Positions 4,183-54,474 of a stretch of 64,000 bases of DNA are shown here, piece by piece. Location of the stretch: positions 10,038 to 74,037 of the forward strand of contig JAIOIK010000112.1 in assembly GCA_019912545.1 (NCBI GenBank), given 5' to 3'. The notes below the pieces were generated by a model. The model saw only the letters and a program-made list of their open reading frames with translations, had not been told where the DNA came from and ran no database searches. The stretch's first letter is position 1. Every line of letters begins with the position of its first letter. The position numbers were made by a program, and so were the translations under genes. This DNA comes from Ignavibacteria bacterium. GTDB taxonomy: Bacteria; Bacteroidota; Ignavibacteria; Tepidaquicellales; OLB5.

Positions 4183-4668
4183 TTACTTAGTGTAAAGCTG
4201 AATTATTTTATCTATGATATTTGTAGATGAATTATTTTCAACAAATTTGATCCGTTTTATTTCGCCGCCGTTATTTTTAACAACATCAGCGCCAACAATT
4301 TTATCTTCACTCCAGTCAGCACCCTTTACCAAAACATCCGGCAGAACATTACTTATCAGATTAAACGGGTTGTCTTCATCAAAAATAACAACAAAATCGA
4401 CCGGTTTAAGATTCGAAAGAACAAATGCCCTGTTTACCTCAGGCACAATAGGACGCTTATCGCCTTTTATCATTTTTACAGAACTATCTGAATTTAACCC
4501 GACAATTAATACATCACCCATGCTTTTTGCTTCAAGAAGGTATTCCACATGTCCCATGTGGATAATATCAAATACTCCGTTAGTGAAAACTATTTTTTTC
4601 TTTTCTGCTCTCAGTTCCCTTAGCAGTTCCTGAAGACCCTCTCCTGTATAAAATATTCTTTTCATCAA
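4183..4668 (-). CDS. hldC: D-glycero-beta-D-manno-heptose 1-phosphate adenylyltransferase (RfaE domain II as a separate protein)
   Basis: 161 aa with cytidylyltransferase-fold motifs FTNGVFDIIHMGHVEYL and a C-terminal ISSTNIIDKI-like segment. Sits 2 nt downstream of the kinase gene. Confidence 0.8.
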   Translation of the reverse strand: MMKRIFYTGEGLQELLRELRAEKKKIVFTNGVFDIIHMGHVEYLLEAKSMGDVLIVGLNSDSSVKMIKGDKRPIVPEVNRAFVLSNLKPVDFVVIFDEDNPFNLISNVLPDVLVKGADWSEDKIVGADVVKNNGGEIKRIKFVENNSSTNIIDKIIQLYTK

Positions 4669-4670
4669 AT

Positions 4671-5669
4671 TCAGTTCTTAAGAGAGTCTATTAATGCTTT
4701 TTTATAGATCGGGATTATCCCGACTTCTTCGCAAACAATCCCTGCGGCCTGGTTTGCGAGTAATACTGCTTCGGTTATGGTTGCGCCTCCGGCAATTGCC
4801 ACAGCAATTGTTGAGATAACTGTATCGCCTGCGCCTGAGACATCCGCAACTCTTCTGGCTTTTGTGGGGATATTTAGCATTACAGTCTTGCCATTTTCTT
4901 TATCAAAAAGCATCATCCCTTTTTCTCCGCGTGTTAATACAAGATACTCGCAGTTAAGCCGATCAATAAGTTTTCTTCCGGCTTCAACTGCGCTTTGGTC
5001 TCCGTCAACTGTCATTGCAAGTATATCACTTACTTCTTTCCTGTTGGGCTTGAAAATTGTTACATCTCTGTATTCAAAAAAATTGGTAAATTTCGGATCA
5101 ACATATACAGGCTTTTTTGCTTTCCTGCAAAGAGTGATTATTCCTGTGATAAGCTCTTTTGTTAAAACTCCTTTGTTATAATCCTGGAAAATTACTGCTT
5201 CGAAGTTTTTAAGATTACTCTTTACAAATGCGAGGATCTTATTTCTCAGGTCGTTTGAAAGATCATGCTTCTTTTCGCTATCAACCCTAAGCACATGCTG
5301 CGAATGAGAAATTACTCTTGTCTTTGCAGTGGTTGGTCTTGATTTATCTCTGAAAATTCCGATCGTTGAAAGCTTAAGGCTTTTCATCACCTTAATGTAA
5401 TCTTTTGAATCATTATCATGTCCAATTACACCAATGAGAATTGGCTCAGCCTCAAGAGCTTTGATGTTATTTGCAACATTTGCCGCACCGCCAAGCTTAT
5501 ATTCGGTCTTTTTAGTATCAATAACGGGTACAGGCGCCTCGGGAGAAATCCTTGAAATATCACCGTAAACGTATTTATCAAGCATTACATCACCAATTAC
5601 GGCGATTTTCTTGTTTTTACTTTTGCTTAAAATCGCGCCAAGCCTTGAAGAAGATATGTGTATAGTCAT
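4671..5669 (-). CDS. hldA: D-glycero-beta-D-manno-heptose-7-phosphate kinase (RfaE domain I, PfkB family)
   Basis: 332 aa with the PfkB ribokinase-like pattern: VIGDVMLDKY, GGAANVA, and C-terminal DVSGAGDTVISTIA. Confidence 0.8.
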   Translation of the reverse strand: MTIHISSSRLGAILSKSKNKKIAVIGDVMLDKYVYGDISRISPEAPVPVIDTKKTEYKLGGAANVANNIKALEAEPILIGVIGHDNDSKDYIKVMKSLKLSTIGIFRDKSRPTTAKTRVISHSQHVLRVDSEKKHDLSNDLRNKILAFVKSNLKNFEAVIFQDYNKGVLTKELITGIITLCRKAKKPVYVDPKFTNFFEYRDVTIFKPNRKEVSDILAMTVDGDQSAVEAGRKLIDRLNCEYLVLTRGEKGMMLFDKENGKTVMLNIPTKARRVADVSGAGDTVISTIAVAIAGGATITEAVLLANQAAGIVCEEVGIIPIYKKALIDSLKN

Positions 5670-5818
5670 TAAGTTATGGATTCAGACAAATTCCCGAGAA
5701 ATTGGGAAAATAATTAAAATTAAGCAAATATAGAGTTATTAGATGGTTTATTCAATTGAAAAACATGATTAATCCTTTCATTGAAACCCTGCGATTTTTT
5801 GCGTATTTTTGTTGTTCT

Positions 5819-8461: not shown

Positions 8462-9787
8462 ATGCCTAAAACATTAGAAAAAGATTTAAAGCTTGAAAAG
8501 TTCAAAGTAAAAGACCTCTCGCTTGCTGAGTGGGGAAGAAAAGAAATACGTCTTGCTGAAGCTGAAATGCCGGGACTCATGGCTATCAGGGAAGAATACA
8601 AAAACTCCAAGCCTTTAAAAGGCGCAAGGATAGCCGGTTGTTTGCATATGACTATTCAAACAGCGGTTTTGATAGAAACACTTATCGAGCTTGGCGCTGA
8701 AGTAAAATGGTCTTCATGCAATATTTTCTCTACACAGGATCACGCAGCAGCGGCAATTGCTGCAGCAGGTATTTCGGTTTATGCCTGGAAGGGCATGAAT
8801 GAGGAAGAGTTTAACTGGTGCATCGAGCAGACACTCTTCTTCGGTTCTTTCGATAGGCCTTTGAATATGATACTTGATGACGGCGGCGACTTGACAAACA
8901 TGGTTCTTGATGATTACCCCGAGCTTATTGCCGGAATTAAAGGTATCAGCGAAGAAACTACAACCGGTGTTCACAGGCTGTATGATAGAATGAAGAACGG
9001 AACACTTTCATTACCCTGCATAAATGTAAATGATTCTGTTACAAAATCGAAGTTTGATAATAAATACGGCTGCAAGGAATCACTTGTTGACGCAATAAGG
9101 CGCGCTACTGATGTTATGATGGCAGGCAAGCTTGCCGTTGTTGCAGGTTATGGTGATGTTGGAAAAGGTTCATCACAGTCACTTCGCGGTGCTGGTGCAA
9201 GAGTTTTGGTAACCGAGATTGATCCGATCTGCGCTCTTCAGGCCGCAATGGATGGATACCAGGTTGTTACTATGGATGAAGCTGCTAAAGTTGCTGATAT
9301 TCTGGTTACAGCAACCGGCAATCTGAACATTATCACAGACAGGCACTTCAAATCAATGAAAGATAAAGCTATCGTTTGCAATATCGGTCATTTTGATAAC
9401 GAAATTGATATGGCATGGCTGAATAAGAATTACGGCAGCACAAAGGAAACCATAAAACCGCAGGTTGATATTTACAATGTTGACGGCAAGGAAATTATTG
9501 TTCTTGCAGAAGGCCGCCTTGTAAATCTGGGCTGCGCGATGGGGCACCCTTCGTTTGTAATGTCGAATTCATTTTCAAACCAAACACTTGCACAGATTGA
9601 GCTTTGGCAGAATCACACCAACTACAAAAATGAAGTTTACGTATTGCCAAAGCATCTTGATGAAAAAGTTGCAAGGCTCCATCTTGCAAAGGTAGGCGCT
9701 AAGCTTGAGAAACTCTCTCCAGAGCAGGCAAAATATATCGGCGTCGAGGTAGAAGGACCTTTCAAAGCAGAGTGGTATAGGTATTAA
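8462..9787 (+). CDS. ahcY: Adenosylhomocysteinase
   Basis: 441 aa with SAH hydrolase motifs ([25 protein letters not shown] site, HFDNEID, C-terminal YRY). Confidence 0.92.
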
Positions 9788-9805
9788 TTAATCCATTATA
9801 GACTA

Positions 9806-9839
9806 AAGGCAGTCAAATATTAATTGACTGCCTTTTTTT
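9806..9839 (+). terminator. Rho-independent terminator after ahcY
   Basis: Stem aaggcagtcaa / ttgactgcctt with loop atattaa, followed by a T7 run. Confidence 0.8.
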
Positions 9840-9930
9840 ATTGTATTAACTGAGATGGGGAAGCCCCGGTTATGAAAACCCGGAGCTTTTTAGGAGGTAA
9901 AACAATTGCGGTATTCCAGTGAGTAAAAAC

Positions 9931-10062
9931 TTAGAAGACGAGACTTAGAAGATTATCAATTGTTGATTTTAAAGACCAGTAGTATTGAACATTGTAGAAT
10001 AATATGTATGCTGCTACTAATGCGCCCTGAACCATTGTTATTATAAAATTTATTGCTTTCAT
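9931..10062 (-). CDS. Micro-ORF B, 43-aa hydrophobic peptide (single predicted TM)
   Basis: Below the 60-aa cutoff of the ORF track. ATG at 10062 is preceded by AAGGGA 8 nt upstream. Peptide: MKAINFIITMVQGALVAAYILFYNVQYYWSLKSTIDNLLSLVF. Begins 38 nt after micro-ORF A. Confidence 0.4.
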   Translation of the reverse strand: MKAINFIITMVQGALVAAYILFYNVQYYWSLKSTIDNLLSLVF

Positions 10063-10100
10063 TTTAGTATTCCCTTTATTTTTTATTTTTTTGTTTTTTA

Positions 10101-10271
10101 TTAAAGACCCTGGTTTGATTTGCTTTCGTAATTTCTTTCAATGAACCTTCTGTAATCTAATTCGTTGTGCATTTCTTTAAATTCGCCGTTTCCCTCAAAT
10201 ACCCAGTAGAACTGAAAATCTGTGATCTTGAAATTTCTGATGGTTACTTTGTTTTTTTCTGCGTTTTTCAT
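10101..10271 (-). CDS. Micro-ORF A, 56-aa soluble peptide of unknown function
   Basis: Below the 60-aa cutoff of the ORF track. ATG at 10271 has GGAG 9 nt upstream. Peptide: MKNAEKNKVTIRNFKITDFQFYWVFEGNGEFKEMHNELDYRRFIERNYESKSNQGL. Lies 53 nt downstream of the conserved promoter box. Confidence 0.5.
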   Translation of the reverse strand: MKNAEKNKVTIRNFKITDFQFYWVFEGNGEFKEMHNELDYRRFIERNYESKSNQGL

Positions 10272-10322
10272 TTTTTTAATCTCCGTTTATTTTTTAATTT
10301 TTGTTCTTAATCAATTCTTATG

Positions 10323-10370
10323 TACAAAGATATTTCTGAACCTTAAGGTATTTCTTACAGATTCCTTACA
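10323..10370 (-). promoter_or_regulatory. Predicted activator-dependent promoter of micro-ORFs A/B: TGTAAG-N5-TGTAAG-N21-TATCTTTGTA
   Basis: On the minus strand, TGTAAG at 10370-10365 and 10359-10354 (11-bp phase), a 21-nt gap, then TATCTTTG at 10332-10325 within the 13-mer AAATATCTTTGTA (10335-10323). The same geometry and the same 13-mer recur at 14053-14100. Confidence 0.55.
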
Positions 10371-10381
10371 GAGTTAAATAT

Positions 10382-10410
10382 TTGTTAATTCATTTATTTA
10401 TATCTATGAT
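10382..10410 (+). promoter_or_regulatory. Candidate sigma-70-type promoter of the STAND regulator gene
   Basis: TTGTTA (10382-10387), 17-nt spacer, TATGAT (10405-10410), about 70 nt upstream of the start. It abuts the TGTAAG repeats. Confidence 0.3.
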
Positions 10411-10478
10411 TTGAACAAATGGAGATCTCTGATTAAAGGGTAATAAAGGCACTGAATTATTGATAAATCTCTTTTAAA

Positions 10479-13400
10479 TTGCTTGAAATGCAGGAAACCA
10501 TAATAAAAACGCGGATTACCCCTAAAAAACTCACTGATAAGATAGTTTCAAGGGAGAGACTGCTCAATAAGTTTAGGGATAATTCAGGCAAAAACATGAT
10601 CTTTGTTATGGGACCAGCAGGTTATGGCAAAACCACATCGGTTTTGGACTACCTCAATACCGATCAAAAGCCCTATGCCTGGTTCTATATATCACCTGAT
10701 ATTGAGAGCTTTCACAGCTATGTTAATTACTTTGTACATTCCTTAAGATTGATTAAGAGTGATTTCGGCCAGAAAACTCTAGAACTTGCTTCTTCACTTG
10801 CCGGGAGCGATTTGTTCTCAATTGATGAAGCCGGTTCAATCAATTCAATTATTGGCACATTTGTTAATGAGTTTATCACAGAATTTGCTGAGGAAACATA
10901 TATTGTACTTGATGACCTGCACAATATACCTGAAAACACATGGCTCAATACAGCATTCAATTCTCTGATAGAGAATTTCCCTGCAAACTTGCATATTATT
11001 ATTACAAGCCGTTCTGAGCCGGATTTTAATGTTGCGAAGCTCAAAGCAAAGCGTAATCTGCTGATAATTGACAGCAATGATCTTAATTTCACTCTCAATG
11101 AAACTGAAAAGCTTGTCACCGATATTTATTCAATTCTTCACAGCAAGGATGATATAGGCAGGCTTGATAAAAAGATTGATGGTTGGGTTACAGGACTGCA
11201 TTTGATACTACAGGCATATGGAGAAGACTTTAAAAAAGTTACAGCCGGCTCTCACAAAAAAGTAGATGAGAGTATCTTTGATTATTTTGCAGAAGATATA
11301 TTCAATAAGGTAAGCGCGTATAACCAGGATTTTCTGCTTTTTACATCAATGCTTGATTCTTTCACCACTGAAATGTGTGATAAGGTCATGGAAATCACAA
11401 ACAGTAAACAAGTACTGGGCGAGCTTAAACGGAAAAATCTTTTTATTGAATCAACAATTTTAGAGGGCAAAAATAATGAGGCTGAAAACCTGTACAGCTA
11501 TCATAATTTATTCAGGCAGTTTCTGAACACAAAGCTTATTGATTCAAAATCCGAAAATGAGATTACTTCTTTTGCCGAAAAGATATTCAACTATTATCTT
11601 GAGACCGGGGATAATATTTCAGCTATTGAATTTTCACTCAAAGCTAAAAATTATAAAAAAGCCTATTCACTCATTATTAATGAGTATGAAAGCATTTTCG
11701 CTATGGGGCGTTATGAGCAGTTGTGGAGATGGGTAGAGCAGTTTCCTCATGAAACAGTTGAACAAAACTCAGACCTGCTTTTCATAAAGGGTAAACTGTA
11801 CAGATTTTTGAAGAGCGACCTGGAAAAGGCATCACAGCTATTCAAGAAAATTATTTCAAATTCCACACCAAATTCGAAGTTGCATGTGTTCGCAAGTTCT
11901 GAACTTTCAGAAATACTTCAGGCAACAGGCAAGCCCGAAGAAGCTTTGAATATATTTAAGAAGCTTTATGAGATCCCGACTCCGTCTGAGCTAAAAGCAA
12001 AGATCATTATCTCTCTTGCCCGTTCATACTATCGGCTGGGAGCTAAACATTATGATAGTATCATTAAGCTTTTGGATGAAGGCATTTTAATAGCAGAAGA
12101 AAATGAACTTGAACAGGCAATAACCGATATATACGGACTTTATGGCAGGATCTATTTGAATAAGGGTGATTTCATAAAATCACAGCATTACTTTGAAAGT
12201 ACTGCAAAGCGCGAAAGGAATATCTATAAGAAGTTTCAGACTATCAATAACCTTGTTCTAAGTTTCGGGTGGAGCGCTCAATATGCCAAAGCAAAGGAAT
12301 TTTACGATGAGGCCGCGAAGATCCGTGAACAATATAAAGGCCCGGTTTTTGAGCGTGATTTCATGAGGTTAACTGCACTTCTTTCGTTTGAAACCGGGGA
12401 TTATGAATCTGCCATAAAGCATTTATTGGGTCTTGTTAACCTTGATAAGAAAAATAAGGTCAGTTCATATTTTACGCTTCACTACCTGTATATTTGCGAA
12501 GCATACATGCTCATAAATGATCATGACAAAGCCAAAACTTATCTTGAGCTAGCCGGAATTTCAAAGGATCCGAAAGATGAATATCTTAATATTGAATTGA
12601 ATTCACATATAGCAATGCTGGAAAAAATGCAAACAGCAGATCCAGAAATAGAGAAAATATTTCTGGAAACTCTGAAATCCTATGAAGATTCTTCGTTATA
12701 CAGCACTTCTCAGATTCAGTTTCATCTTGCAGATTATTATTTCAGGAAAGGTTTATTCAGCACATCACTGCAGTATCTTGATAGCTGCTTAAAAACTGCT
12801 TCAGAAAAACAGTACAATTCATTTTTGGTTCAGCATTTTCTTCAGATGCGGTACCTGTTTGACCTTGCTCTGAGCAATAACCTTCATAAAAAGTATATTA
12901 CTAAGATATATGATATTTTTGTCGAAAGAAATTCATTCATGTGGCTCTCAACAGAGTGCATTAAAAGGAATAATTCAGATTCAATAAGTTCGTGGGATAT
13001 ACAGCTTAATACTCTCGGGGGAATAGAATTGTATGTAAGGGGTAATCCTGTTTCAGACGAAAAATGGATAAGAAAGAAAAGTAAATTGCTGCTGATCTAT
13101 TTGCTTGTTAACCAGGGCATAAAGATCAATAAAGATAAAGTCCTTGGTCTGCTTTTCAATGAACTCTCTGCAAGCAGCGCAGAAAATGTGTTTCACCAGG
13201 CAATTACAAATATCCGCGGTGCATTGAAACCGGTGTTGAAAGTTCATACTGCAGTTGAAAAACCTTTAAAGAAAACTAAAAGTGCCAAAAGTGCAGAACC
13301 TGTACCCGATTTTTCACTAAATTATCTGAATTACGAAGATAAGATACTATATATGTCAAGTGAGTATATCTATAAGACTGATGTTCAGGAGTTTAACCGG

Positions 13401-13820
13401 CTATATAGTATAGTTAAATCTCCCGAAACTGATGTAAGCAGGAAGATAGAAAATGCGAAACTGGCATGTGAGCTCTATAAAGGTGAGTTCCTTCCCGGAT
13501 ATTATGATGAGTGGATCGAAGAAATGAGAACAGTATTAGAGCATAAATACATCGAAATATGTGAGGTTTTGATAGAATTACTCCATAAAAACAAGAATTT
13601 TGATGAACTTATCATTTTCACAGAAAAGCTTTTGCAGGTTGATAAGCTGCATGAAGAAGCATCACTTGCATTAATAGAAGCGTATTCTGCAATTGGGAAT
13701 CATAACATGGCAAAGAAAAAATTTTCACAATTACTTAAGAATTATGAAGAAGAGTATGGCGAGAAGCCTTCTAAAAAGATTATGGACCAGGTTCGCGAAA
13801 TCCTGGATAAGGATCAATAG
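10479..13820 (+). CDS. MalT-like STAND ATPase transcription regulator with C-terminal SARP-type winged-helix + BTAD domain
   Basis: 1113 aa. The N-terminus parallels MalT (VSRERLLNKF...GPAGYGKTT Walker A; YIVLDDLHN Walker B; DGWVTGLHLILQ; YSYHNLFRQFL). The middle ~400 aa is TPR-like helical repeats. The C-terminus has LGGIELYVRGNPVSDEKWIRKKSKLLLIYLLVN...FHQAITNIRGAL (OmpR/SARP wHTH) followed by YKGEFLPGYYDEWIEEMR...ALIEAY (BTAD). Start is TTG 10479 or ATG 10488. Confidence 0.8.
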   Translation: MLEMQETIIKTRITPKKLTDKIVSRERLLNKFRDNSGKNMIFVMGPAGYGKTTSVLDYLNTDQKPYAWFYISPDIESFHSYVNYFVHSLRLIKSDFGQKTLELASSLAGSDLFSIDEAGSINSIIGTFVNEFITEFAEETYIVLDDLHNIPENTWLNTAFNSLIENFPANLHIIITSRSEPDFNVAKLKAKRNLLIIDSNDLNFTLNETEKLVTDIYSILHSKDDIGRLDKKIDGWVTGLHLILQAYGEDFKKVTAGSHKKVDESIFDYFAEDIFNKVSAYNQDFLLFTSMLDSFTTEMCDKVMEITNSKQVLGELKRKNLFIESTILEGKNNEAENLYSYHNLFRQFLNTKLIDSKSENEITSFAEKIFNYYLETGDNISAIEFSLKAKNYKKAYSLIINEYESIFAMGRYEQLWRWVEQFPHETVEQNSDLLFIKGKLYRFLKSDLEKASQLFKKIISNSTPNSKLHVFASSELSEILQATGKPEEALNIFKKLYEIPTPSELKAKIIISLARSYYRLGAKHYDSIIKLLDEGILIAEENELEQAITDIYGLYGRIYLNKGDFIKSQHYFESTAKRERNIYKKFQTINNLVLSFGWSAQYAKAKEFYDEAAKIREQYKGPVFERDFMRLTALLSFETGDYESAIKHLLGLVNLDKKNKVSSYFTLHYLYICEAYMLINDHDKAKTYLELAGISKDPKDEYLNIELNSHIAMLEKMQTADPEIEKIFLETLKSYEDSSLYSTSQIQFHLADYYFRKGLFSTSLQYLDSCLKTASEKQYNSFLVQHFLQMRYLFDLALSNNLHKKYITKIYDIFVERNSFMWLSTECIKRNNSDSISSWDIQLNTLGGIELYVRGNPVSDEKWIRKKSKLLLIYLLVNQGIKINKDKVLGLLFNELSASSAENVFHQAITNIRGALKPVLKVHTAVEKPLKKTKSAKSAEPVPDFSLNYLNYEDKILYMSSEYIYKTDVQEFNRLYSIVKSPETDVSRKIENAKLACELYKGEFLPGYYDEWIEEMRTVLEHKYIEICEVLIELLHKNKNFDELIIFTEKLLQVDKLHEEASLALIEAYSAIGNHNMAKKKFSQLLKNYEEEYGEKPSKKIMDQVREILDKDQ

Positions 13821-13920
13821 AGTACATTATCAGAATCTCAATTAAACCCTGATTTAAGACACAAAAATTATTCCACAAACCACAATATTTCTGGCTTAGT
13901 CTCTACTTTTCAAAGTTACC

Positions 13921-13967
13921 TCAGGTATTCACCTGATGTGCATCAGTTGAATATCTGACGCCACAAC
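13921..13967. repeat. Left copy of a 47-bp inverted repeat (double-hairpin element)
   Basis: tcaggtattcacctgatgtgcatcagttgaatatctgacgccacaac is the reverse complement of 16401-16447 with 43/47 matches. Confidence 0.85.
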
Positions 13968-14052
13968 GTAACGTACTTTTACAACTAATAATATCATTGG
14001 TTAGCATAAAGCTAAGAAATGTTGATTTCGTTCGTTTTTCAATACTTTTTAC

Positions 14053-14100
14053 TGTAAGAAACTTGTAAGAGCTTTCATAAGCTTTCCAAATATCTTTGTA
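14053..14100 (+). promoter_or_regulatory. Predicted activator-dependent promoter of the OM-barrel gene: TGTAAG-N5-TGTAAG-N21-TATCTTTGTA
   Basis: TGTAAG at 14053-14058 and 14064-14069 (11-bp phase), a 21-nt gap, TATCTTTG at 14091-14098 within AAATATCTTTGTA (14088-14100). ATG lies 50 nt downstream. Confidence 0.55.
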
Positions 14101-14148
14101 TAGAATTTAATTATTCAATTCTAAACAAACTTAAAAGAAAGCAAAAAA

Positions 14149-14970
14149 ATGAAAAACTCAAACAATGTAACTTTCAAAGCAGCAAGAATCGTTTTAACAG
14201 CAGTTATCGTAACTATGTCAGTTCTTTTTCCCTACGGAATATTAAAATCACAGGATAACAACAGTCTTGAGGGAATTGTCCAGAATTTTGTTGCAACACA
14301 GGATGCCACAGTATTACAGCCATACGCGGACGCATTAAGTACAAGCATGAACTCAGGGCTATTCCATTCAGCAAAAGTTAAAAAGGGCTTCAGCTTCTAC
14401 TTTGGGATTAAAGGCAGCGCATCTTATATAAATTGCGATAACCCGGTTGTGAAAGACGCCAACAGGACCTTCAGTATGATGCCAATGGCAGTTCCGCAGG
14501 TACAGATCGGTTCTTTGTACAGCACAGAAGTTTCAGCAAGATTTATGCCCACAATATCGCTTGGTAAATACGGTTCAGTTGGCACATGGGGAATTGGAAT
14601 AAAACACGGATTCACAAGCCACTTCAAGAACAGTCCAATAGACGGAGCAATTGGATTTGCATACAACAGGATATCAATAAATGACTCCAAAAACAGTGAA
14701 TTTGTAAATGCTTCATCAATGGCAGTGAATCTTCAGTTCAGCAAAGAGCTAAGCGTATTCACTTTCTACACAGGTGTACAATATGAAAAAACAAGTGCCA
14801 GCCTTAAGCTGAATTACCAGAATTTATCACATTCAGTGAATTATGAAAACGAAAACAAAATTAAGGCAATAGTTGGTTTGAACATTAAGCTTGGACCTGT
14901 AAACATTAATAGTGATTACAGTTTCGGGAAAACAAACTCAGTAAGTGCAGGATTTGGGTTTGGTTTCTAA
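14149..14970 (+). CDS. Putative outer-membrane beta-barrel protein
   Basis: 273 aa with an N-terminal signal/TM segment, alternating beta-strand-like pattern and a C-terminal aromatic beta-signal (SAGFGFGF). Followed by its own terminator. Confidence 0.55.
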   Translation: MKNSNNVTFKAARIVLTAVIVTMSVLFPYGILKSQDNNSLEGIVQNFVATQDATVLQPYADALSTSMNSGLFHSAKVKKGFSFYFGIKGSASYINCDNPVVKDANRTFSMMPMAVPQVQIGSLYSTEVSARFMPTISLGKYGSVGTWGIGIKHGFTSHFKNSPIDGAIGFAYNRISINDSKNSEFVNASSMAVNLQFSKELSVFTFYTGVQYEKTSASLKLNYQNLSHSVNYENENKIKAIVGLNIKLGPVNINSDYSFGKTNSVSAGFGFGF

Positions 14971-14987
14971 ATAGTATTATCCCTAAT

Positions 14988-15020
14988 TACCGGTCATTTA
15001 CACTGACCGGTATTTTTTTT
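14988..15020 (+). terminator. Rho-independent terminator
   Basis: Stem taccggtca / tgaccggta with loop tttacac, then a T8 run. Confidence 0.8.
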
Positions 15021-15074
15021 AATATCATTGTAATCAAAAATTTAATTCGTTAAAATTACCAACTTCAATAGAAA

Positions 15075-16370
15075 ATGAAAAAAATACTCATAATATCGCT
15101 TTTTTGTGTACAATCAATGGGTGCATTATCCCAGGTATGGGTTGAACAGTCGCCGCCGGTAGGGACTCCAGAGCTTTACTCAGTTTTTGCTTATAGCAGC
15201 ACTATAGCATGGGTATGCGGAGACCAGGGAACTGTACTTTGTACTTCAACAAGTGGTGCAACATGGATACCAAGAGGCAGCGCACTGTTTTTAAGTAATA
15301 ATATGTACGGAATATTTGCAACCAGCCAGGATACTGCTTATGTTGTTTGTTCAGTCGCCGGTGCCGGAAAAGTATTTAAGACAACAGATGCAGGCTTGAA
15401 TTGGGTACAGAAATTTACAAGGCCAAGTACAAGCCTTAAAGATATTGAATTTGTTGATAGTCAGACTGGTTATGTTTATGGCAATCCGAGTGAGAAAAAG
15501 TGGTTTATTATCAGGACTACAAATGCGGGAGCTTCGTGGGATAGCGTTAATGTAACAAGGCCTGCTTCATTTGATGTAGATGATTTAGCATGGCCGAATG
15601 CACTTCATGTAAAGCGTATTGGTGTTGGAGGTCCTATTACAATTTGGTTTGGCACTAATGCCGCTGCAATTATGCGAAGCACAAATTCCGGGGCTTTCTG
15701 GACATCCAGCGCAACTCAAAGCAGCAATGTTTTTTCAATTACTTTTATTAATGATCAGATCGGGTTTGCCGGAGGGCAGGTACCATACAGGACTTTGAAC
15801 GGAGGCTTAAACTGGACAGTACAGATAAATTATCCTAATTCCGGTGATTTCTTTTCTTTTGTAAATTCATCAGGATACTTATTTTATTCATCGGGGTTCA
15901 AGATATGTGTATCTACAAATACCGGAACCAGCTTTGCAGTTCAGTACTCCCAACCAAACCAGGAAAATTATAATCATATGGGCTTTGTTACTGTTGCTAA
16001 TGATAATGCTGTTTCAACTTTAACCGGATGGGGTGTCACTGATGAAGGCAGCATTTCTCATTACACTGAAACGATCGGTATTTCAACGATAAGTACAACT
16101 ATACCTGAAGAATTCAAATTGAAACAGAATTATCCAAATCCGTTTAACCCGGTTACTTACATTAATTTTGATATCCCCAAAAGAGGAAATCTAAGTCTAA
16201 AAGTTTTTGATGTTAATGGCAGACTTGTAAGAACAATTTTTGCGGGAGTGCTTAATGCAGGTTCTTACAAAGCTGATTTTGATGCTTCAGAGCTTCCAAG
16301 TGCAGCATATTTTTACAGGCTTGAGACTGAAGATTACATCGAAACAAGGAAAATGGTACTGATAAAGTAG
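15075..16370 (+). CDS. T9SS-secreted BNR/Asp-box (Ycf48-like) beta-propeller protein
   Basis: 431 aa with a signal peptide and repeated S/T-x-D/N-x-G-x-x-W motifs (TTDAGLNW, TNAGASW, STNSGAFW, TLNGGLNW). C-terminal T9SS sorting domain: QNYPNPFNP...YFYRLETEDYIETRKMVLIK. Confidence 0.7.
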   Translation: MKKILIISLFCVQSMGALSQVWVEQSPPVGTPELYSVFAYSSTIAWVCGDQGTVLCTSTSGATWIPRGSALFLSNNMYGIFATSQDTAYVVCSVAGAGKVFKTTDAGLNWVQKFTRPSTSLKDIEFVDSQTGYVYGNPSEKKWFIIRTTNAGASWDSVNVTRPASFDVDDLAWPNALHVKRIGVGGPITIWFGTNAAAIMRSTNSGAFWTSSATQSSNVFSITFINDQIGFAGGQVPYRTLNGGLNWTVQINYPNSGDFFSFVNSSGYLFYSSGFKICVSTNTGTSFAVQYSQPNQENYNHMGFVTVANDNAVSTLTGWGVTDEGSISHYTETIGISTISTTIPEEFKLKQNYPNPFNPVTYINFDIPKRGNLSLKVFDVNGRLVRTIFAGVLNAGSYKADFDASELPSAAYFYRLETEDYIETRKMVLIK

Positions 16371-16400
16371 TTTTGTAGTTGGTTATTTTCATATGGCTTT

Positions 16401-16447
16401 GTTGTGGCGTCAGATATTCATCTGACGCACGTCAGGTAAATACCTGA
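16401..16447. repeat. Right copy of the 47-bp inverted repeat (double hairpin)
   Basis: gttgtggcgtcagatattcatctgacgcacgtcaggtaaatacctga. Hairpin 1: gcgtcagat/atctgacgc (16407-16428). Hairpin 2: gtcaggt/acctgac (16431-16448). Lies 31 nt after the propeller gene stop. Confidence 0.85.
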
Positions 16448-16549
16448 CCTCACAATTTAAAGACAATAAGTTTAGCAAGAGACATTCTCATATTTAATAC
16501 TAATCTTGGTACCATGTATTGGCAGTAGTTTTGCATACATTCATCTGCA

Positions 16550-16580
16550 TTGAATAAAACCCTTAAATTCGATATTTTTG
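16550..16580 (+). promoter_or_regulatory. Candidate tRNA-Thr promoter
   Basis: TTGAAT (16550-16555), 17-nt spacer, TATTTTTG (16573-16580). The tRNA starts 17 nt later. Confidence 0.35.
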
Positions 16581-16596
16581 TAAAATTTGCAAGAAA

Positions 16597-16669
16597 GCTA
16601 GCGTAGCTCAGTTGGTAGAGCAGCGCATTCGTAATGCGCAGGCCACCGGTTCGACTCCGGTCGCTAGCT
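16597..16669 (+). tRNA. tRNA-Thr (anticodon CGU)
   Basis: Hand-folded 73-nt cloverleaf. Acceptor GCTAGCG/CGCTAGC, D arm GCTC-AGTTGGTA-GAGC, anticodon stem GCGCA/TGCGC with loop TTCGTAA, T arm ACCGG-TTCGACT-CCGGT. No encoded CCA. Confidence 0.9.
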
Positions 16670-16902
16670 CTTAATTCCTGTTTATTCCCGCATTTTTCCA
16701 TATTATGTAATACATTTAAATTAATTCTATTTACGATAACTCAAAAATACGAACTTACTTCTTCTGGCTTCTGCTCATAGCTGTACAGGCAGTATGGATT
16801 ATTAATTCAGACGGCTTTTACTTCATCGATGATTCAAGTCATTTTAACTACAACAGGCATTACTTAGAATCTATTGGACAGAGCATCGGGGCATGGCATA
16901 GA

Positions 16903-54397: not shown

Positions 54398-54474
54398 GAT
54401 TGAATTGCATGTCAATTTATCCGTAGATTGTTGAATAACTATTAAATTATATTTGTTAAAAAACTTAAACACAC

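Follow-up and report, generated by a model that had tools for sequence, protein, structure and literature searches.

Bacterial regulators that resemble the one described here fall into three groups: (i) the winged-helix activators PhoB and OmpR; (ii) MalT of Escherichia coli, a STAND/LAL protein; and (iii) the SARP family, which comprises large members such as AfsR and small ones such as ActII-ORF4, DnrI, VlmI and FdmR1. PhoB promoters carry tandem 11-bp direct repeats in place of the -35 element. MalT, whose multimerization needs ATP and ligand, activates promoters without a good -35 from several sites that adjoin one another. As for AfsR, the target gene next to its own, afsS, encodes a protein of 63 aa. 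The system studied here lies in a 64,000-nucleotide stretch (hereafter, the window) of contig JAIOIK010000112.1 from an Ignavibacteria bacterium (assembly GCA_019912545.1), where the gene of a 1110-aa regulator is flanked on either side by a copy of the same promoter site. Judging from the comparisons presented below, it is likely that both copies are activator-dependent sigma-A promoters of the Bacteroidota/Chlorobi type, with a good -7 box and with repeats in place of the -33 element, and that these repeats are bound by the SARP module of the adjacent regulator.

In known SARP targets, direct repeats stand 11 or 22 bp apart and the 3' repeat lies 8 bp from the -10 element (PMC10936776). The AfsR box spans positions -40 to -19, and each protomer touches the initial 8 bp of an 11-bp repeat; the bound dimer links the DNA with sigma region 4, the beta flap, the beta' zinc-binding domain and the alpha subunit's C-terminal domain (alpha-CTD), an arrangement termed "sigma adaptation" (PMC10936776). 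The nucleotide-binding and oligomerization domain (NOD) as well as the tetratricopeptide repeat (TPR) domain of AfsR inhibit the SARP output until ATP binds (PMC10936776). Sites with three heptamers are known for DnrI, ActII-ORF4 and others, and a review of the family describes SARPs as exclusive to actinobacteria, with the SARP domain at the N-terminus (PMC10972967). Regarding promoters, TAnnTTTG is the sigma-A -7 box of Bacteroidota, located at -12 to -5 in Flavobacterium (PMC9723704), and the related Chlorobi consensus is TTG-N17-23-TAnnTTTG (bioRxiv 10.1101/172254).

Both sites in the window consist of two TGTAAG hexamers followed, 21 nt after the second one, by TATCTTTGTA (coordinates of all features in Table 1), and they share an identical 13-mer, AAATATCTTTGTA. 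A first-pass annotation of the window had already placed these repeats, spacers and boxes, together with the shared 13-mer, and on re-reading the sequence all its coordinates proved correct, as did the distances to the start codons (53 nt on the left and 50 nt on the right, counted from TTTG to ATG). It had also described the sites as direct repeats phased at about 11 bp. This holds for the first two repeats (R1 and R2), which are 11 bp apart, but three repeats are present instead of two: alignment of both copies, and then of orthologous copies, revealed a third repeat (R3), CTTAAG on the left and CATAAG on the right, which starts 12 bp after the start of R2, its end being 9 bp away from the TA of the box. 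Written out in full, the site is hence TGTAAG-N5-TGTAAG-N6-CnTAAG-N9-TAnnTTTGTA.

Single TGTAAG hexamers occur 37 times in the window (30 +/- 5 expected). Exact TGTAAG-N5-TGTAAG pairs occur twice, and not a single pair appeared in any of 100 dinucleotide-preserving shuffles. When the complete pattern, with its 22 specified bases, was searched for with up to three mismatches, it matched these two places only in the window and none of the 100 shuffles. The two-site geometry is confirmed as real, chance being excluded.

Conservation was examined in a protein-anchored sample, that is, in the contigs of seven orthologous regulators (78, 60, 58, 54, 52, 47 and 41% identity), using nGTAA-N6-nGTAA as the site search pattern; altogether, 15 sites, in eight loci, flank regulators of 41-100% identity. 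A four-part module recurs in these loci: a small gene on the minus strand and then, on the plus strand, the regulator, a DUF6588 gene and a gene for a beta-propeller protein of the type IX secretion system (T9SS). Wherever a locus has both targets, the site is found on either side of the regulator. R1 reads TGTAAG in 14 of the 15 sites and R2 in all of them; R3 fits nnTAAG in 14, and TAnnTTTG is present in all 15. The spacer from R2 to the box measures 21 nt throughout, with indels nowhere. Likewise, in all 15 sites the CnTAAG hexamer ends 9 bp, and the heptamer CnTAAGs 8 bp, before the TA of TAnnTTTG. Mean pairwise identity reaches 0.83 in R3 and 1.00 in the box, and 0.40-0.63 in spacers and flanks (the flanks, at about 0.40, are at background). 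The alignment of orthologous intergenic regions proposed in the first-pass annotation has thus returned three repeats and a box at invariant spacing, in surroundings close to background. Furthermore, the number of sites tracks the number of targets: two loci without the small gene (L087 and L104) have the right site only, directly upstream of the beta-propeller gene. In L083, the DUF6588 gene is lost and the right site is kept; in L088, the neighbouring genes are quite different and the module is kept with both sites.

Some additional features of the sites deserve mention. In most sites, R1 is preceded at 3-9 nt by a T-tract (ATTTTTT), a possible UP-like element. At module sites, the initially transcribed region contains a semi-conserved AGAAnTTA/AGAATT motif 3-10 nt past TTTGTA (10301-10322 on the minus strand and 14101-14112 on the plus strand of the window; orthologous sites L081-L086); stand-alone sites do not have it. 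In L087 (~4490-4515) and L104 (~5055-5080), a GC-rich hairpin, AACCCTGAGCGAAGCCGAAGGGTT, comes right after the -7 box, in the predicted 5' untranslated region. A CATAAG located just after the -7 box of the left site was considered as a fourth repeat and rejected, as it is not conserved across orthologues.

The box TATCTTTG had been read in the first-pass annotation as a -10/-7 element, and rightly so: it matches the sigma-A -7 box TAnnTTTG(TA) of the Fibrobacteres-Chlorobi-Bacteroidetes (FCB) group (PMC9723704). The -35 positions had been called non-consensus; of 35 unique sites, one has a -33 TTG at a permitted spacing (17-23 nt upstream of the -7 box) and 34 do not. For this reason, the unassisted promoter is expected to be weak. 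With the box placed at -12 to -5, the repeats would take the positions given in Table 1, where R2 covers the -33 position. Within the window, the density of TAnnTTTG in intergenic DNA is about 1.8 times that in coding DNA, and several genes are preceded by it. The boxes that had been pointed out elsewhere are all present: TATTTTTG before aspS (5804) and before tRNA-Thr (16573), and TATATTTG before the gene at 54448. The aspS box (5804-5811) lies just 7 nt from its ATG. A sigma-70 consensus scan of 9700-16900 gave 25 promoter-like matches (25.2 expected) and is uninformative for this organism. An Rfam scan of the region found tRNA-Thr only, and the conserved blocks are explained by no known RNA element.

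The regulator is a MalT-like STAND sensor with a C-terminal SARP output, composed of a winged helix-turn-helix (wHTH) and a BTAD domain. Its Pfam matches are AAA_16, NPHP3_N, multiple TPR families and BTAD, the latter (PF03704) at residues 967-1109, over the full length of the model and over the curated cut-off (E 6e-11). The NCBIfam model of MalT (PRK04841) is matched at model positions 2-419 (E 9e-61), under the equivalog cut-off because the rest of the regulator differs. The Walker A (GPAGYGKTT) and Walker B (DD) motifs are intact, and their residues are invariant in 26 homologues. According to precomputed annotation, the orthologues contain the MalT winged-helix domain (PF25873, WHD_MalT). 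The LuxR-type HTH (PF00196) has no match in the regulator or its close family; LuxR-ended homologues appear among distant matches only, which cover the N-terminal 40%.

A profile of the last 299 residues matches AfsR (8HVR, 3.8e-12) and EmbR (2FEZ, 8.6e-9), and a profile of the wHTH by itself matches EmbR (wHTH residues 11-84), ToxR and CadC; the wHTH profile aligns the helix FHQAITNIRGAL with the recognition helix of the OmpR family. In a single-sequence PDB search, the C-terminus returned designed TPR proteins only, AfsR and EmbR being reached by profile. The AlphaFold2 model of the C-terminal module, with a predicted local distance difference test score (pLDDT) of 85, has the beta-sheet, three-helix and hairpin topology; used as a Foldseek query, it gave AfsR (8K60, 8HVR) and EmbR as the top six hits, with template-modelling (TM) scores of 0.63/0.73 over about 280 aligned columns. 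The Lys-rich insert of the module (window 13230-13310, residues ~918-942) is 25-40 residues long, has a pLDDT below 50 and varies in length among orthologues; in some paralogues (P0047, P0038) it is absent. Named homologues of the regulator are solely proteins from metagenome-assembled genomes (MAGs) of the Ignavibacteria/Chlorobi group. A profile search of genome contigs with the regulator alignment ran on generic P-loop patterns: the matches listed are mostly MalT-like genes of Chloroflexi and Firmicutes, and two of the contigs, L001 and L002, could be used for comparison. The literature search yielded no paper on SARP-type regulators of Ignavibacteria and, for MalT-like STAND proteins with BTAD, nothing relevant beyond one AfsR structure paper.

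The recognition helix and the repeat change together. Four combinations can be distinguished: (i) in the eight aligned TGTAAG-group regulators (41-100% identity), the helix is FHQAITNIR in seven and FHQAVTNIR in one (P0023), and the site is TGTAAG-N5-TGTAAG-N6-CnTAAG-N9-box; (ii) in L001, FHQLISKFR goes with GGTAtG-N6-GGTAAG-N6-GGTAAG-N9-TATATTTG; (iii) in L111 (regulator P0047), FYQSVSRLR goes with GGTAAT-N6-GGTAAG and the box is 1 nt closer; and (iv) in L002, FHQLVSDLR goes with GATAAG-N6-GATAAG-N5-TGTCAG-N9-TATGTTTG. The last three sites are all upstream of T9SS beta-propeller genes. In addition, GGTAAG was predicted for a further paralogue (P0045, helix FHQMVSKFR) before its locus was looked up; that locus, L114, contains GGTAAG-N6-GGTAAG-N9-TAACTTTG, upstream of an operon of a 111-aa and a 555-aa SBBP/T9SS protein. 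This co-variation is the strongest indirect evidence for the adjacent regulator as the binder, without amounting to proof. The paralogous STAND-SARP regulators (L001, L002, L111, L112, L114) consistently adjoin genes of T9SS-secreted proteins, namely beta-propellers (SBBP, DUF5122-like, Kelch) and one beta-lactamase-fold protein, which suggests a family-wide link between this type of regulator and T9SS cargo.

The same site also occurs outside the module. When a metagenome collection was scanned with the 22-base pattern, 23 sites were found on 21 contigs, at least 14 of which belong to the module, as the site adjoins the regulator, the small proteins, DUF6588 or the beta-propeller gene (tblastn). 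On the remaining contigs (L089, L091, L096-L098, L101 and L106), sites are upstream of signal-peptide open reading frames (ORFs), and the stand-alone targets comprise a family of ~560-aa T9SS proteins, an SBBP beta-propeller protein and ~170-aa lipoproteins. L100 is a weak case, its site being followed only by a 47-aa ORF without homology. Among the 40 sites with enough flank for a downstream ORF to be checked (from the window, the orthologous loci and the metagenome contigs), 38 have one, with its start 31-70 nt after the box. Several stand-alone sites share samples with module sites (Ga0209819, Ga0315273, Ga0184637). Instead of occurring at random, inside genes included, which according to the first-pass annotation would have spoken against an operator, all sites in the window and the metagenomes are intergenic. 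The predicted regulon extends beyond the two flanking promoters, because the same site precedes other secreted-protein genes in related metagenome contigs.

How the locus compares with the described systems can now be specified. The large SARPs, including AfsR, are made of the same blocks as the regulator (OmpR-type wHTH plus BTAD, STAND NTPase and TPR), and AfsR, solved by cryo-electron microscopy (8HVR, 8K60, 8JKE; afsS promoter), is the best structural match of the C-terminal module. The afs box (-40 to -19) coincides with R2/R3 (-39 to -22), both being same-orientation repeats that overlap the upstream promoter element, and the 3' heptamer is 8 bp from the -10-equivalent box, as in the SARP rule (PMC10936776). 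The promoter-proximal R2/R3 pair is the part that corresponds to the SARP box. A small-protein gene is an adjacent target in both cases (afsS beside afsR, the 56-aa gene here), by analogy only. Nevertheless, AfsR differs in several respects: (i) its SARP module is at the other end of the protein, the order being inverted here so that the module is C-terminal, like the DNA-binding domain of MalT; (ii) its NOD is NB-ARC-like instead of MalT-like, identity is about 16%, and the Lys-rich wing insert is a feature of the Ignavibacteria regulator; (iii) its promoters are actinobacterial, whereas those described here are of the FCB-group -7 type, with a different sigma-A, in Ignavibacteria; and (iv) it targets antibiotic clusters, as opposed to T9SS cargo and envelope genes. 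The AfsR site differs as well, in that the sites described here have three repeats, R1 and R2 being 11 bp and R2 and R3 12 bp apart.

The small SARPs ActII-ORF4, DnrI, VlmI and FdmR1 use, as here, three direct heptamer-type repeats, spaced by roughly one helical turn, over the -35 region (PMC10972967), but they consist of the SARP module alone, without sensor domains, and act at actinobacterial HrdB promoters with different, GC-rich repeats. MalT shares with the regulator the N-terminal NOD, the PF25873 winged-helix domain, a helical-repeat sensor and a C-terminal DNA-binding output, which is a LuxR-type HTH in MalT and a SARP module here. PhoB and OmpR have a winged-helix recognition helix of the same family (ToxR and CadC profile matches) and differ in being controlled by a receiver domain and phosphorylation instead of a STAND ATPase, and in the BTAD found here. 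In structure and, apart from the 12-bp R2-R3 period, in the geometry of its putative sites, the regulator agrees with the SARP family; in domain order and taxonomic range, it departs from the textbook definition. As regards binding, activation, transcription starts and signal, we infer that it works like AfsR and the small SARPs at its promoters and is sensed like MalT.

The following mechanism may be proposed. The SARP module would be kept inactive by the MalT-like STAND ATPase and the TPR sensor, up to the point where ATP and ligand trigger oligomerization; three adjacent repeats would fit such oligomerization. Each repeat would then take up one SARP protomer, all of them aligned along the same face of the DNA, and these protomers, if AfsR is a guide, would stand in for the missing upstream element through contacts with sigma region 4, the beta flap and the alpha-CTD. 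Once switched on, the leftward promoter would produce the 56-aa protein and the 43-aa membrane peptide, and the rightward one the DUF6588 outer-membrane barrel and the T9SS-secreted beta-propeller, with further secreted T9SS proteins in related genomes.

That both promoters are activated by the wHTH-BTAD protein encoded between them had been put forward in the first-pass annotation. The SARP profile and fold, the conserved spacing, the missing -33 element and the helix-repeat co-variation all argue for it, binding itself being a deduction, and the repeats are most probably bound by the SARP module of this regulator. On the other hand, several points weigh against this assignment. The case for binding and for the start sites is comparative throughout. 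The conservation of R1 and R2 is partly built in, as the anchoring search required TGTAA at both, and the scan pattern required all 22 specified bases of the metagenome sites. The R2-R3 period is 12 bp instead of the canonical 11, and R3 is degenerate (CnTAAG) in the TGTAAG group. The cases of co-variation are few and phylogenetically clustered (three GGTAAG loci, probably mutual orthologues, and one GATAAG locus), and distant paralogues gave no clear site: L110 and L113 lack a target on either the divergent or the downstream side, in L112 the only repeat, CCGATAA, is weak and a clear -7 box is missing, and none of them fits the model. The contacts with RNA polymerase cannot be assumed from AfsR, given the C-terminal position of the module and an identity of about 16%, and the FCB-group sigma-A is unlike HrdB in its recognition of the upstream element. 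Finally, sites without an adjacent regulator, such as that of L097 (12.6 kb, none), show action in trans, and adjacency alone cannot identify the factor.

This last point is also the starting point of a different explanation, which we consider unlikely: the repeats could be real operators bound in trans by another winged-helix protein, either of the OmpR/PhoB type or another SARP paralogue, the STAND-SARP gene being merely a co-regulated neighbour. The sites of L098, L101 and L106 are, like that of L097, far from any regulator gene, and several STAND-SARP paralogues are encoded in these genomes (one and the same MAG is the source of L001 and L085). However, the module moves as a unit, with both sites, into a different neighbourhood (L088), and no other DNA-binding gene is conserved in it; moreover, the recognition helix of seven of the eight TGTAAG-group regulators is invariant, as opposed to an identity as low as 41% over the rest of the protein, and in the paralogues helix and repeat change together, one case having been predicted beforehand. 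Slightly less probable still is that the adjacent regulator does bind but mainly represses, or has a dual role, with R2/R3 excluding RNA polymerase until ligand releases the protein. The position of the sites over the spacer and the core promoter's upstream part (-39 to -22), the perfect consensus of the -7 box with its conserved extended TA, and the inhibition of the SARP output by NOD and TPR in AfsR (PMC10936776) would all be compatible with repression. Yet a promoter without the -33 TTG, as in 34 of the 35 sites, should be weak when unassisted; the BTAD/SARP modules characterized so far are activators at exactly these positions (PMC10936776, PMC10972967); and same-orientation repeats at a fixed 8-9 bp from the box point to a stereospecific polymerase contact, not to occlusion.

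It is very improbable that no dedicated regulator is involved, and that the sites are an extended core promoter, read by an alternative sigma factor or by the alpha-CTD, or else the terminal inverted repeats of a mobile unit. The two copies are indeed mutually inverted and flank one gene, and the T-tract precedes R1 in most sites. But the -7 box agrees with the consensus for housekeeping sigma-A instead of being an extracytoplasmic-function-type motif (PMC9723704), single copies precede unrelated secreted-protein genes, and the paralogues keep the geometry and change the hexamer, which points to a sequence-specific protein partner. Regarding a mobile element, this candidate was rejected: only the box and the three phased hexamers are conserved, spacers being at background level, a pattern that does not resemble transposon ends; synteny is stable, and there is no transposase at the examined loci.

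The regulator gene may have a promoter of its own. A block conserved before its ATG in seven orthologous upstream regions reads ...CACTGAATTATTGATAAATC...TTAAATTGC-N5-ATG and contains, at 10475-10482, TAAATTGC, which fits the TAnnTTGY variant of the -7 box described in PMC9723704 and lies 5 nt before the ATG. This suggests a start at about 10487 and a nearly leaderless mRNA. The first-pass annotation had placed a -35 element of the regulator at 10371-10400, beside the left repeats, and had proposed autoregulation through the left site. This stretch is not conserved among orthologues, and autoregulation is unsupported because the block that is conserved is oriented in the opposite direction, at a distance of about 70-110 bp from R1.

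Among the target genes, the beta-propeller T9SS gene is the sole one present in every orthologous module. In the window, no TAnnTTTG box was found upstream of it; either read-through/attenuation control at the hairpin that separates it from the DUF6588 gene or a non-consensus promoter may apply. The DUF6588 protein is predicted to be an outer-membrane beta-barrel, a statement about its general class only: it has a signal peptide and a C-terminal aromatic residue, its AlphaFold2 model contains 11 predicted beta-strands (pLDDT 68, moderate confidence) and its Foldseek matches are all outer-membrane barrels, at TM 0.3-0.4. No paper that mentions DUF6588 was found in the literature. On the left, the 56-aa protein has no match in Pfam or NCBIfam, and the homologue search returned six close relatives without annotation. 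The gene of the 43-aa peptide is the first one after the left site in L083; in L090 (6532-6654), the identity of the peptide reaches 88% and that of the regulator just 52%. Between the convergent ahcY and the small-peptide operon, a hairpin with a 12-bp stem and T-runs (9805-9835) is probably a bidirectional terminator.

Table 1. Features of the regulator locus, with positions in the window (promoter positions, starts and functions as predicted).
Feature	Position	Strand	Remarks
Left R1, TGTAAG	10365..10370	-	predicted -50..-45
Left R2, TGTAAG	10354..10359	-	predicted -39..-34; in place of the -33 element
Left R3, CTTAAG (family consensus CnTAAG)	10342..10347	-	predicted -27..-22
Left -7 box, TATCTTTG + TA (TAnnTTTGTA)	10323..10332	-	putative transcription start near 10320 (-), from box position in PMC9723704
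Right R1, TGTAAG	14053..14058	+	
Right R2, TGTAAG	14064..14069	+	
Right R3, CATAAG	14076..14081	+	CnTAAG kept in orthologues
Right -7 box, TATCTTTG + TA	14091..14100	+	putative transcription start near 14103, from box position in PMC9723704
Regulator, 1110 aa	10488..13820	+	MalT-type STAND NTPase, MalT winged-helix domain, TPR sensor and C-terminal SARP module
SARP output module (OmpR-type wHTH + BTAD)	12921..13817	+	recognition helix FHQAITNIR; Lys-rich disordered insert between helix and wing hairpin
Candidate regulator promoter block	10443..10487	+	CTG, 20 nt, TAAATTGC; seven orthologous upstream regions compared
Left gene 1, conserved 56-aa cytoplasmic protein	10101..10271	-	motif F.FYW.F..G....H.E.DY..F...NY.SKSN; orthologues follow the left site in most loci
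Left gene 2, 43-aa hydrophobic peptide	9931..10062	-	probably co-transcribed with the 56-aa gene
Right gene 1, DUF6588 protein	14149..14970	+	signal peptide, predicted outer-membrane beta-barrel; Pfam PF20230, E 6e-46
Terminator-like or attenuator-like hairpin	14988..15012	+	9 bp stem and T8 run; between the DUF6588 and beta-propeller genes
Right gene 2, BNR/Ycf48-like beta-propeller with T9SS C-terminal sorting domain	15075..16370	+	Pfam and NCBIfam Por_Secre_tail

A wider interpretation is offered tentatively, as one that may well turn out either way. SARP-type sigma adaptation would not be an actinobacterial speciality: Ignavibacteria would possess a family of STAND-SARP regulators, each paralogue reading its own nnTAAG code at a fixed distance from the -7 box, for the ligand-gated control of T9SS beta-propeller and envelope genes, and the 56-aa protein could be an AfsS-like partner or feedback factor. 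If the reading of the two promoters given above is correct, an activation mechanism that is structurally solved only for Streptomyces AfsR would extend to an unrelated phylum with a -33/-7 promoter grammar, which raises the question of how the SARP module contacts the FCB-type sigma-A and RNA polymerase. The paralogues would constitute a specificity series: AITNIR with TGTAAG, SKFR or SRLR with GGTAAG, and VSDLR with GATAAG. The compact activator-dependent promoter cassette may provide an inducible system for Bacteroidota-type hosts. For the uncultured Ignavibacteria, this would be the first predicted regulon with its cis-element, tying a ligand-sensing STAND ATPase to T9SS cargo genes.

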